This document shows positions 8,646-54,563 of a stretch of DNA of 64,000 bases, piece after piece; positions within the stretch are counted from its first letter, which is position 1; each line of letters starts with the position of its first letter. A program made the position numbers and the translations under genes. The notes under the pieces are model-generated. The model ran no database searches and had not been told where the DNA came from. It was given only the letters and a program-made list of their open reading frames with translations. Source of the DNA: an uncultured delta proteobacterium (lineage in GTDB: Bacteria > Myxococcota_A > UBA9160 > SMWR01); the NCBI GenBank assembly GCA_963832165.1, contig CAWHTE010000007.1:384001-448000 (forward strand), written 5' to 3'.

Positions 8646-9204
8646 TACGCGCTGCGATCTGGACGGTGCTGGCGATGATGGCTTCGGCGGCCCCCGCGAG
8701 CGCGGCCGACGAGGGGGGCCTGCTCTACCCCACGATCAACTTCGTCCTGCTGATCGCGGTGCTCATCTACTTCGCGCGCAAGCCGATCCAGGCCTTCTTC
8801 AGCGACCGCCGCACGGCGATCCGCAAGGACCTCGACGAGGCCGCCGCGATGAAGCGCCAGGCCGAAGAGCGCTATGCGCAGTGGCAGCGGAAGCTCGTGG
8901 ATCTCGAGCGCGAGCTCGCGGAGATCCGCGCCGGTTCGCAGGAGCGCGCCGAGGCCGAGCGCGCGAGCCTGCTCGAGGACGCGCGCGCCGCGGCCGAGCG
9001 GATCCGGTCCGATGCGGCGACGGCGGTCGAGCACGAGCTCCGCCGCGCGCGCACGCGGCTGCGTGAGGAGGCCTCGCAGCTCGCGATCGAGCTCGCGGCC
9101 GGGATCCTGGGCGAGCAGGTCACCGCGCAGGACCGCAACCGCCTGATCGACGAGTTCATCGAGCGCGTGGCGACGCGCGCCGCGAGCCGAGGCGAGCGAA
9201 GTAG
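8642..9204 (+). CDS. atpF: ATP synthase subunit b; reads through into delta as sequenced, probable true stop TAG at 9202-9204
   Basis: INFVLLIAVLIYFARKPI...DRNRLIDEFI. Confidence 0.85.
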
Positions 9205-9211
9205 GAGGCGG
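9163..9211 (+). repeat. Hairpin repeat family copy at the atpF/atpH junction
   Basis: GCGCGT-ggcg-ACGCGC hairpin followed by GCCGCGAGCCGA-GGCGAGCGAAG...AGGCGG, one base shorter than the family core. Confidence 0.7.
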
Positions 9212-9217
9212 AGTGCG

Positions 9218-9763
9218 ATGCGAAGCTCTGCCGCAGCCCGCCGCTATGCGCGAGCGTTGTTCATGCTCGCCGACGAGACGGGCGCAGTCGCGAAGATCCG
9301 CGCCGAGCTCGCCCAGATCTCCGGGTTGTTCGAGTCCGAGCCGCAGCTGCGCAATGCGTTGTTCCGGCCGCTGCATCCGGTGGCCGAGCGGCGCGCGGTG
9401 CTGCGCTCGCTGTGCGAGCGCCTCTCGCTCGAGACCACCCTGCGCAACTTCTTCGCGTACGCGATCGATCAGCGGCGCCTGGTCGACTTCGAAGCGATCC
9501 GCGCCGAGTTCGAGCGACTCGCCGATACGGCTGCGGGGCTCGTCAAGGCGCGCGTCACCGCCGCGGCGCCGCTCGACGACGCCCAGCGCCAGCGGCTCCA
9601 GAGCGCGCTCGCCGCGCGCACGGGCCAGCGCGTCGAGCTCGACGTCTCGGTCGATCCCTCACTGATCGCCGGCGCGGTAGCCGCGGTCGGCAACGTCGTG
9701 TTCGACGGCAGTCTTCGCACGCAGCTCTCCCAGCTGCGCGACACCCTCTCGAGAGGAAACTGA
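9218..9763 (+). CDS. atpH: ATP synthase subunit delta
   Basis: [35 protein letters not shown] at 9203-9208. Confidence 0.92.
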
Positions 9764-52308: not shown

Positions 52309-53589
52309 ATGCCCAACCACCCCACCCGCGACGACATCCACCTGCTCGGCCGGTCGTTCTACCTCGATCCGCACGAGCGGTTCGGCTGGATGCGCGATCA
52401 CGCGCCCGCCTACTTCGAGCCCGCGGTCGACGAGCTGGGCGGCATCTGGGGCCTCACGCGCCACGCCGACATCATGAACGCGTCGAAGACCCCGGAGCTT
52501 TTCAGCTCGGGGAAGAGCTCGCGGCCTGAGCCCGGGTCGTGGATCCCCTCGATGATCAACCTCGACGATCCGCTCCACAAACGGCGCCGCAATCTCGTGA
52601 ACCGCGGCTTCACGGTGCGGCGCGTCGCGGATCACGAGGCGAGGCTGCACGCGCTCTGCGACGAGCTGATCGACGCGGTCTCGCCGCGCGGCGAGTGCGA
52701 CTTCGTGGCCGACATCGCGCGCTGGGTGCCGATGGTGGTGATCGGCGACATGCTGGGCGTGGCGCCCGAAGACCGCGGGATGCTCCTGCGCTGGTCCGAC
52801 GAGATGCTCGGCGGCGGCGAGGTGGCTGCGATCGAGGATCCGCAGGAGCGCCGCGCGCGCAGCGTCGCGATCGTCGACGAGTACATGCGCTACGCGCAGG
52901 GCGTGCTCGCCGACCGCCGAGGTCGGGCCCCCACCGACGATCTCATGAGCATCCTCGTCCACTCCGATCTCGACGGCGATCGGCTCAGCGAGGAGGAGAT
53001 CCTCCAGGAGAGCCTGCTGATCCTGATCGGCGGCGACGAGACCACGCGCCACGTGATGACGGGCGGCCTGCGCGCGCTGCTCGAGCATCCGGAACAGAAG
53101 CGGAAGCTGATCCAGAACCCCGCGCTGCTGCCGACCGCGGTCGAGGAGATGCTGCGCTGGGTCTCGCCGATCCAGAACATGAACCGCACGCTCACGCGCG
53201 ACGTGGAGCTGCACGGCGAGAAGCTGCGCGAGGGGGAGCGCGTGCTGCTGCTCTATCCGGCCGGCAACCGCGACGAGCGCGCGTTCCCGGAGCCCGACCG
53301 CTTCGACGTCGAGCGCACCCCGAACGACCACGTCGCGTTCGGCGGCTTCGGCACCCACTTCTGCCTTGGCGCGAGCCTCGCGCGGCTCGAGCTGCGCGTG
53401 CTGTTCGAGCACGTGCTGCGGCGCCTGCCCGACATCGAGCTCGCGAGCGAAGATCTGCCGCTGCGCCCGAGCAACTTCATCGTCGGCATCGAGGAGATGC
53501 CGGTGCGCTTCACGCCGCAAGCGCCGCGAAGCGGCGCGCGCAGCGAGGCGAAGCCGAGCGAAGCGCGGGCGCCCGCGAAGGGAGGTTAG
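52309..53589 (+). CDS. Cytochrome P450 (CYP142/CYP125-like); C-terminal tail derived from a repeat
   Basis: GGDETT, EEMLR, HVAFGGFGTHFCLG. Confidence 0.94.
   Translation: MPNHPTRDDIHLLGRSFYLDPHERFGWMRDHAPAYFEPAVDELGGIWGLTRHADIMNASKTPELFSSGKSSRPEPGSWIPSMINLDDPLHKRRRNLVNRGFTVRRVADHEARLHALCDELIDAVSPRGECDFVADIARWVPMVVIGDMLGVAPEDRGMLLRWSDEMLGGGEVAAIEDPQERRARSVAIVDEYMRYAQGVLADRRGRAPTDDLMSILVHSDLDGDRLSEEEILQESLLILIGGDETTRHVMTGGLRALLEHPEQKRKLIQNPALLPTAVEEMLRWVSPIQNMNRTLTRDVELHGEKLREGERVLLLYPAGNRDERAFPEPDRFDVERTPNDHVAFGGFGTHFCLGASLARLELRVLFEHVLRRLPDIELASEDLPLRPSNFIVGIEEMPVRFTPQAPRSGARSEAKPSEARAPAKGG
53517..53585 (+). repeat. Hairpin repeat family, B-type copy in-frame at the P450 3' end
   Basis: GCAAGCGCCGCGAAGCGGCGCGCGCAGCGAGGCGAAGCCGAGCGAAGCGCGGGCGCCCGCGAAGGGAGG; closely matches the inner atpG copy. 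Confidence 0.9.
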
Positions 53590-53591
53590 CG

Positions 53592-54473
53592 ATGCCGCTC
53601 CGCCATTTCGGACCGCGACAATGGGTGCGCGACGAGCGCGAGCGGCTCGCCGCGCTGCGCTTCGAGCGGATCGGCGTCGCGCCGCTCGGCGCCACGGTCG
53701 GCGCCGAGATCAGCGGGGTCGACCTCGGCCATCTCGATGAATCAACCTTCGCCGAGATCGAGCGCGCGTTCTACGCCTTCAAGGTGATCTTCTTCCGCGA
53801 CCAGGACATCACGACCGAGGACCACCTCGCGTTCGCGAAGCGCTTCGGCGAGCTCGAGGAGCACCCGTTCATCCCCGCGAAGAAGGGCTACGAGCAGATC
53901 GTCCGGTTCTCGAAGAACGAGCGCGTAATCGGCGTCGAGAACATCTGGCACCACGACGTCACCTGGCGGTTGCGCCCGTCGCTCGGCTCGGTGCTGCGCG
54001 CGGTCGACGTGCCCGCACTTGGCGGCGACACGCTGTTCGCGGACATGTGCGCGGCGTATGAGGGCCTCGCTCCCGACGTCCAGCAGAAGGTCGACGGCGC
54101 GGTCGCCGTGCACGACTTCTCGAACACGTTCGGCCTCATGATGACGCCCGAGAAGCTGGCCGAGCAGCGCGAGAAGTTCCCGCCCGCGCGCCATCCCGTG
54201 GTGCGGACCCACCCGCAGACCGGCCGCAAATGCCTCTACGTGAACGTCGCATTCACGAGCCACATCGAGGGCATGGCGACCGACGAGAGCCGCGCGCTGC
54301 TCGAACACCTCTACCGCCAGGCCGACGTGCCCGAGTACCAGTGCCGCTTCCGCTGGCAGAAGAACAGCCTCGCGTTCTGGGACAACTGCGCGGTCCAACA
54401 CTACGCCGCGTCGGACTACGATCCGCAAGTGCGCGTGATGGAGCGCGTGACCATCATCGGGCAGCCCGTTTGA
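53592..54473 (+). CDS. TauD/TfdA-family Fe(II)/2-oxoglutarate dioxygenase
   Basis: [30 protein letters not shown]...QH. Confidence 0.92.
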
Positions 54474-54563
54474 CTTCGCTCGGGCCCGCCTGCTGGTCTT
54501 CGCTCGCCTTCGGCTCGCTGCGCGAAACTTGCAGCTCGCTGCGCGCGCCCTTTGGGCGCTTGC
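54474..54563 (-). repeat. Nested pair of hairpin repeats (outer B-type copy split by an inner A-type copy at 54486-54532)
   Basis: Reverse complement = GCAAGCGCCCAAAGGGCGCGCGCAGCGAGCT | GCAAGTTTCGCGCAGCGAGCCGAAGGCGAGCGAAGACCAGCAGGCGG | GCCCGAGCGAAG. Confidence 0.85.

Follow-up and report, generated by a model that had tools for sequence, protein, structure and literature searches.

Short bacterial repeats can settle inside genes and leave them readable, and this coding tolerance is already on record for Rickettsia palindromic elements (RPEs) and for repetitive extragenic palindromic (REP) sequences (PMC10969869, PMC3733652). RPEs are described as in-frame insertions in unrelated housekeeping open reading frames (ORFs), with empty sites in relatives and no known mobiliser (PMC10969869), and mycobacterial interspersed repetitive units (MIRUs) as 40–100-nt repeats dispersed in operons, where they insert at start/stop overlaps, restore coupling and form tandem arrays (PMC12548453, PMC3184786). 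How such enzyme-less, coding-tolerant repeats move is a long-standing question. The cyanobacterial SDR repeats of Elhai et al. 2008 are likewise said to be very small and mobile without a transposase. Here we analyse a 64,000-nucleotide stretch of an uncultured delta proteobacterium (the window; positions 384,001 to 448,000 of contig CAWHTE010000007.1, assembly GCA_963832165.1), in which a sequence-only reading had noticed a family of hairpin mini-elements, 12 copies at 10 loci, that belonged to no family it recognised. We conclude with high confidence that the family is a real, mobile, non-autonomous and frame-preserving element.

Core grammar and turnover of the element

The element is ~42–70 nt long and keeps a constant order: GCAAG is fixed at the 5′ end, next come a 5′ hairpin module that can be exchanged and a 25-nt core that does not vary, and the 3′ tail is variable. 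The strict core pattern, CGCAGCGAG-N7-CGAGCG(A/G)AG, has 9 matches in the window and 150 in the source genome (G000), a metagenome-assembled genome (MAG) of 5.5 Mb and 89% completeness; relatives' genomes are numbered in the same way. One order-5 Markov simulation and the reversed pattern each gave 0 matches, so the genome scan proposed with the sequence-only reading places the family above background. With up to 2 substitutions allowed, G000 holds 178 cores (1 in the reversed control), which group into 172 loci. The three subtypes that had been proposed hold genome-wide (A 83, C 32, B 23 and 12 others among the 150 strict copies, by rough regular-expression classes); in our analysis A has a short 5′ module, B a hairpin and C a long hairpin. 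We also find the 38-nt A core identical at three window loci and without a stop codon in any of the six frames, as first described; it occurs in 22 copies genome-wide. GCAAG opens 75 of 82 A-type copies, and the tail is so variable that 81 of 82 A copies are distinct once 12 tail bases are counted.

Of 154 copies, 142 have a GNA loop in the core and 150 a C-G inner stem pair, and the outer pair shows covariation, being C-G in 109 and G-C in 41. The same grammar holds in 216 copies from other genomes, where the inner pair is also compensated. The flanks CGAG...CGAG and GNA...GNA are invariant. A GNA/GNA zipper and sheared G·A pairs in tandem would need just such flanks. We therefore infer that the core would fold into one irregular hairpin in which both motifs join a C-G stem and a GNA triloop, and we presume that they carry over here from general DNA structure chemistry. 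Such a fold should form only on the purine-rich DNA strand. Mini-hairpins of the GCGNAGC type have far greater stability in DNA than in RNA form, withstand nucleases, show weak binding to SSB (the single-stranded DNA-binding protein) and are found at priming sites on single-stranded DNA (ssDNA); one such site, ssiA, includes a CCGAAGG hairpin (PMC13037366).

The ends carry few conventional marks of transposition. Just 2 of 45 copies have a complement of the 5′ end after the core, so terminal inverted repeats are not seen; target-site duplications of 2–6 nt show no excess over shuffles (p 0.26–0.81) and are also not seen at the empty sites described below. Extra half-modules lie at 43 of the 172 loci, and in G000 together with 594 kb of the closest congener, G004, we found 21 clean nested junctions at which a newer copy replaces the central loop of an older one.

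Turnover was read from a comparison of G000 with those 594 kb of the 3.4-Mb G004, on contigs picked partly for repeat hits, which gave 69 loci with alignable flanks, a few of the pairs being weak. At 61 of these 69 loci the other congener is empty, and only 8 sites hold any copy in both. The element has thus turned over since the congeners split, which is what survives of the earlier description of it as active; the word itself overstates the case. At empty coding sites the length difference is a multiple of three in 22 of 28 cases (p ~1e-6 against one third), and simple A copies give a net gain of 39, 42 or 45 nt in 8 of 11. Beyond the window genes, internal hosts include PurH, BirA, Mfd, a Sua5/TsaC-type protein, glycerol-phosphate acyltransferase and AMP-binding enzymes. 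The junctions show short microhomology, small target replacements and targets that are at times already element-like; GC stands at the start of 19 of 58 empty sites, against an expectation of 14% (p=4e-4), and neither junction has a fixed target word or a constant flank. Some copies re-create stop/start overlaps (ATGA/GTGA), in at least 3 of the 69 pairs (L324:4424, C7:617851, L337:11661). Others remove stops and yield apparent fusions, namely panB-panC, CoA-binding-SUI1 and a gene upstream of a ketoacyl synthase (L262 C11:613080-614912; L243; L260), which may be real read-through or miscalls.

The family is widespread within its class and patchy from genome to genome. Among 31 relatives the strict pattern occurs in 23, at 0–355 copies each, and within the genus one genome has 1 copy and the others 60–155. 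A tighter pattern is present in 27 of 251 genomes of the phylum, nearly all within the element's own class, and a generalised (relaxed) core in 55 of 121 class genomes, with up to 600 copies, and in only 1 of 41 genomes of one family; four zero-copy genomes remain at zero under a relaxed pattern. The core itself is nearly invariant across the class. Among the matches listed, titles name Myxococcota or Deltaproteobacteria MAGs, some labelled Spirochaetales. Some relatives carry tandem arrays and inverted pairs of the element, and the same loops and spacers are struck repeatedly. In soil and sediment metagenomes, the summed contig depth at element bins (window 19132–19615) rises up to ~100-fold above neighbouring bins, an excess that points to an abundant family in other organisms there. 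A close strain did not emerge: the sequencing runs searched held at most 12% of the query words, contigs from four runs belonged to other organisms and gave no usable joint, and the query protein's metagenome homologues reached 71% identity at best.

The copies follow the genes around them. With genes called by our hexamer model, under which some of the 'internal' hits stem from miscalled fusions or start extensions, 70 gene-overlapping copies are sense and 5 antisense, and in spacers between co-directional genes the split is 45 sense to 21 antisense (p=0.004). Copies are clustered and enriched next to codon-adapted genes, and at 37 of the 172 loci a sense start follows no more than 30 nt downstream. 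About 60% of copies are outside ORFs, at a density of 127 per Mb of non-coding DNA against 15 per Mb of coding DNA; this ~8-fold depletion identifies the coding copies as tolerated survivors and makes the suggestion that the family colonises coding sequence an overstatement. The 32 internal sense copies fall 17/12/3 by frame, the two main frames being hydrophilic and charge-balanced and the basic frame rare; the antisense frames are more hydrophobic. The variety of frames reported earlier therefore comes down to two main ones, and the variety of orientations to a nearly uniform sense. Since internal copies favour the hydrophilic, charge-balanced frames and the antisense frames are more hydrophobic, selection accounts for much of the sense bias, and a transcription-linked insertion bias is possible. 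A replication-strand bias was considered and rejected: 100 of 172 loci are on the leading strand, where 56% of genes lie, lagging-strand genes carry 27 sense copies, and between divergent or convergent genes 17 of 31 copies are on the leading strand. The peptides are presumably translated, to judge from the intact ORFs.

The ten loci of the window

All ten loci were recovered, seven of them overlapping coding sequence as first counted, one of these seven (aurF) in antisense. The two loci entered as double are nested insertions, in which a complete copy sits in the split hairpin of an older one, rather than tandem pairs. A nested composite at 11908–12018 (+) lies inside atpG, where a host A copy (11908–11926 and 11992–12018) is split by a B-type copy (11927–11991), giving ~29–36 extra residues. 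It is absent from 16 of 17 relatives, and G025, from a different family and with 3 strict copies genome-wide, carries, independently, a copy of its own in this AtpG loop. At this position the chloroplast gamma subunit aligns end to end, and other bacterial gammas break in the alignment; we take it to be the site of the chloroplast gamma regulatory insertion. In radA, an A-type copy at 19565–19611 (+) follows the Walker A helix and keeps the frame (net 45 nt); 19 of 20 relatives are empty there, and G002 carries an antisense family-like insertion in the same loop. A single-sequence AlphaFold model of RadA was uninformative (pLDDT 39). With the AtpG and RadA loops hit in other lineages too, the alignments indicate that loop lengthening in core enzymes is repeated and independent. 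A second A-type copy, at 19176–19213 (+), occupies the spacer upstream of radA, 12 nt from its start, and this site is empty in G002.

A C-type copy at 14373–14438 (+) is in frame (net 66 nt, 22 residues) in a conserved hypothetical gene (14158–15441) and is absent from all 33 of 33 homologues covering the site. Another C-type copy, at 16008–16080 (−), gives bioD, in sense, its last codons and its TAG stop; the G004 site is empty. The B-type copy at 21767–21827 (+) lies directly 3′ of the stop of a polyprenyl synthetase gene and upstream of a helix-hairpin-helix (comEA-like) gene; the site is empty in G002, G004 and G005, and G003 has its own copy there. Just after the start of an AurF-family gene, an antisense A-type copy at 44802–44849 (−) is in frame (net 45 nt), and G004 has the same start and an empty site. 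A B-type copy at 53517–53585 (+) forms the C-terminal tail of a cytochrome P450, and the match to the G003 orthologue stops at the element's first base. The nested composite at 54474–54563 (−), between tauD and a flavin monooxygenase gene, consists of a B host (54563–54533 and 54485–54474) split by an A-type copy (54532–54486); it is antisense, and its tail overlaps the tauD stop. Of the atpG, radA and P450 alignments that had been suggested as a check, those of atpG and radA do reveal empty sites, and the reading of a non-autonomous, coding-tolerant family that would add peptides to housekeeping proteins stands.

The shared core claimed for every locus is degenerate at 9163–9211 (+), at the atpF/atpH junction, where the strict core is reached only with 2 substitutions and the loop is 1 nt shorter. 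This short central loop throws a TAG out of the atpF frame, and atpF and atpH form one ORF at 8675–9763; in four congeners and G025, atpF ends with a stop at this site and the genes are separate. The joint ORF is a true b-delta fusion or else results from a 1-base error of assembly. G000 is just 20 nt longer than G004 here, and the copy at the atpF end is doubtful and may be partly native sequence.

The window adjoins the replication origin (dnaN, rnpA, yidC, parAB). An Rfam scan of it gave a tRNA as its sole match, and in agreement with the sequence-only reading the window proteins scanned had no Pfam match to a transposase family. A copy of a separate, GTAG-headed REP family lies at 46930–46986 (−) and also has GNA mini-hairpins in its loop; this family has 144 head-word matches in the genome and its own flanked REP-associated tyrosine transposase (RAYT) gene (C4:535459). 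At 25097–27779, HAMP-domain coding repeats upstream of a hybrid histidine kinase are split over several frames, which suggests frameshifts or assembly errors.

A proposed single-strand route and its rivals

The core also occurs outside chromosomes. Among viral contigs the generalised core has 14 exact single-locus matches against 0 for the reversed pattern (L370-L383), all 14 with a complementary stem pair. By our reading they come from ~8 lineages, including phages of 35–44% GC. They lie in spacers, several of them beside terminase or transaldolase genes of AT-rich, T7-like phages near contig ends, and two are in Rep/capsid-type contigs of ssDNA-virus type, on one of which Pfam was run. A BLAST search of phage records gave no match. 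These sites are candidate priming or packaging signals. The core further lies inside a conserved, unannotated 130–180-nt element of 94 rhizobial plasmid records (L181:2440-2620; L183:2460-2590), near DUF736 and ParB-type genes; in one plasmid 10.5 kb separate it from traC/traA, and it is on the side away from the relaxase. The element is a candidate leading-region ssDNA signal. Plasmid BLAST matches to a group II intron reverse transcriptase were 20 nt long, at chance level, and were set aside. ColE1 carries a CGAG-stem-GNA-stem-CGAG word at 1330–1343, a shorter-stem relative of the core in what is presumably the ssiA/pas region. Taken together, these occurrences suggest that the core is an ssDNA signal in wide use, or a stable fold reached by convergence.

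We give an even chance to a non-autonomous, selfish mini-element with an ssDNA working form, captured at microhomologies by host or visiting factors and filtered by selection. In such a cycle the purine-rich strand would fold into the irregular core hairpin, and the fold would shield a short copy in ssDNA form against exonucleases and SSB, or alternatively would be recognised by a conserved ssDNA-binding or priming protein. The fragment would be captured by microhomology at exposed single-stranded chromosomal DNA through host or visiting plasmid or phage factors, with no transposase of its own. Selection would then retain frame-preserving copies that place hydrophilic, charge-balanced peptides in permissive loops or tails, and copies that re-create stop, start or ribosome-binding signals in operons; such selection would explain most or all of the sense bias. 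Support for ssDNA comes from the covarying stem, the GNA loops, the viral and plasmid cores, the lack of target-site duplications and terminal inverted repeats, the GC microhomology and the nested junctions. There is a precedent in SPDIR, in which ssDNA is captured at microhomologies and restrained by ssDNA exonucleases (10.1101/2024.07.02.601687). Unlikely, in our estimate, is a bolder version in which a plasmid- or phage-type hairpin, a selfish single-strand priming and protection signal, would have turned into a transposase-free chromosomal mini-element that recruits host restart or priming machinery and is captured at transcription-exposed ssDNA. If true, this would define a class of transposase-free mobile elements and open the movement of RPE-, MIRU- and SDR-type repeats to direct tests.

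Several observations weigh against the ssDNA route. The GC microhomology is missing from over half of the empty sites, and at ~85–89% identity the junctions are blurred. SPDIR acts at lagging-strand gaps and the element has no replication-strand bias; SPDIR is also rare and random, and the element's fixed 5′ end suggests a specific cut. ViennaRNA gives similar energies for both strands, in a model that does not include sheared pairs. The ColE1 likeness is by itself at chance level (1 match, 0.51 expected), and the shorter-stem form is not enriched in G000 (92 against 68–96 in controls). No finding here explains why one congener has 1 copy and others 60–155. An ssDNA intermediate, its structure and a protein partner are all putative.

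Three other explanations share the remaining ground. The element could be a miniature of REP/REPIN or IS91 type that a dedicated HUH enzyme, acting in trans and encoded on visiting DNA or DNA missing from the MAGs, cuts and pastes as ssDNA, an explanation we hold possible and somewhat unlikely. It would account for the fixed 5′ end, whose complement contains CTTG, a tetranucleotide of the IS91 target/cleavage type (PMC13181058), and for the lack of target-site duplication; inverted pairs occur in some relatives, some published REPs have GCGAAGC or GCGCAGC loops (PMC2817692), and the top three genomes by copy number in the 31-relative scan (G014, G017, G013) carry 10–19 RAYT-like genes. It has to contend with the missing GTAG/CGTC head, the missing fixed junction word and the enzyme searches, whose absences hold for assembled sequence. 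The 12 Y1 genes of G000 are one true RAYT and 11 RAYT-like genes with flanks of their own; no copy lies nearer than 1.4 kb to any of the 12, and the flanks of 12 RAYT-like loci hold no core. The RAYT-like family was not found in the high-copy genomes G003, G004, G005 (99% complete, 96 copies) and G009, and is present in G015, a 0-copy genome. A Y2 transposase was not found in G000, in a search whose positive control was also silent. The 11 RAYT-like genes are themselves a subfamily of ~230 aa, 56–86% identical, with own short inverted flanks (L001, L003-L008, L358-L369); with 4–19 copies in 7 same-family relatives it behaves like an insertion sequence and unlike a domesticated RAYT. Other candidate mobilisers were dismissed: DUF559 (none in G000), GIY-YIG (one 625-codon frame, probably UvrC), IS110 (5 in G000, none near listed copies, and not found in G003, G009, G013 and G014) and Ku (not found in G009, G014 and G017). 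Genes flanked by two copies are housekeeping or metabolic, and no enzyme lies beside the copies of low-copy genomes. The flanked RAYT/IS200-IS605 HUH or IS110 enzyme that the sequence-only reading proposed to look for is thus not beside the copies, and copy number is not tracked by reverse transcriptase, IS110 or Ku; the RAYT-like group gives a mixed picture, present in the top three genomes and in a zero-copy one and not found in four high-copy ones.

RNA-templated insertion from transcripts would explain why orientation follows the genes independently of replication direction, in ORFs and spacers alike, and why copies cluster beside codon-adapted genes. We think it very unlikely: a reverse transcriptase was not found in G000, G003, G004, G005, G009, G013, G014 or G017, antisense insertions exist (aurF, radA of G002), and a three-base GNA loop that tolerates any middle base fits DNA mini-hairpins and not RNA tetraloops. 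Nearly as improbable is a domesticated host signal, such as a restart or priming site, a nucleoid-protein site or a translation-coupling cassette, spread by gene conversion and kept for host benefit. The near-invariance of the core across the class, the loci just upstream of sense starts, the re-created ATGA/GTGA overlaps and the repeated strikes on the same loops and spacers would all suit it; positions are not conserved between congeners, however, with 8 of 69 orthologous sites occupied in both, near-complete relatives have 0–1 copies even by a relaxed pattern, and self-nesting destroys older copies.

Comparison with known systems

We found no match to a described family in Rfam or the literature searched, in line with the first impression that the element is unnamed; overlap with SDR is possible, SDR and RPE having been compared by description. 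It resembles RPEs in its in-frame insertions, empty sites and missing mobiliser, and differs from their described form, ~150 bp with a conserved peptide (PMC10969869), in being 42–70 nt long, read in two main frames, modular, self-nesting, ~60% outside ORFs and built on a strand-specific core with predicted sheared G·A pairs. With REPs and REPINs it shares short, high-copy, GC-rich hairpins, published intragenic copies and stop donation, and some GNA loops (PMC3733652, PMC2817692); in contrast to them it lacks the GTAG/CGTC head (0 of 45 single A copies) and, in the assembled part of G000, a flanked RAYT, and its G000 copies are mostly single or nested rather than inverted doublets. MITEs, the miniature inverted-repeat transposable elements, differ by their terminal inverted repeats and target-site duplications. 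From an IS91-type miniature the element is set apart by the lack of a fixed tetranucleotide target beside its end and by the empty Y2 search, whose control was silent too. It is like MIRUs in size, operon setting and tandem arrays, and at least 3 of the 69 pairs show insertion at stop/start overlaps, which is not the rule; by their description, MIRUs have tetranucleotide direct repeats and an internal coupled ORF (PMC12548453, PMC3184786), whereas the element has no duplication signal and many copies deep inside ORFs. SDR5 is described as inserting precisely into HIP1 (PMC4390886), and the element has no fixed target. Single-strand initiation (ssi) and primosome sites have comparable GNA mini-hairpins, including CCGAAGG in RSF1010 ssiA and the ColE1 word (PMC13037366, PMC3167613, PMC11541004). 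The likeness is in sequence grammar and context alone, since those sites are single-copy on mobile replicons and not dispersed chromosomal repeats, and the element's 5′ half is not in the Frpo/ssi supplementary table of PMC11541004.

The family offers a good test bed for the movement of enzyme-less repeats, with thousands of copies class-wide, near-zero-copy congeners and nested copies that record junctions. Its precise structural grammar points to ssDNA and not RNA, and the same core in plasmids of cultivable hosts makes the biochemistry measurable. The element works like RPEs, intragenic REPs and MIRUs, and lacks defining features of REPs, MITEs, IS91-type elements and RPEs. What is new here is a class-wide family with a strand-specific DNA-hairpin grammar shared with single-copy plasmid and viral sites, self-nesting, and repeated hits on the same loops.

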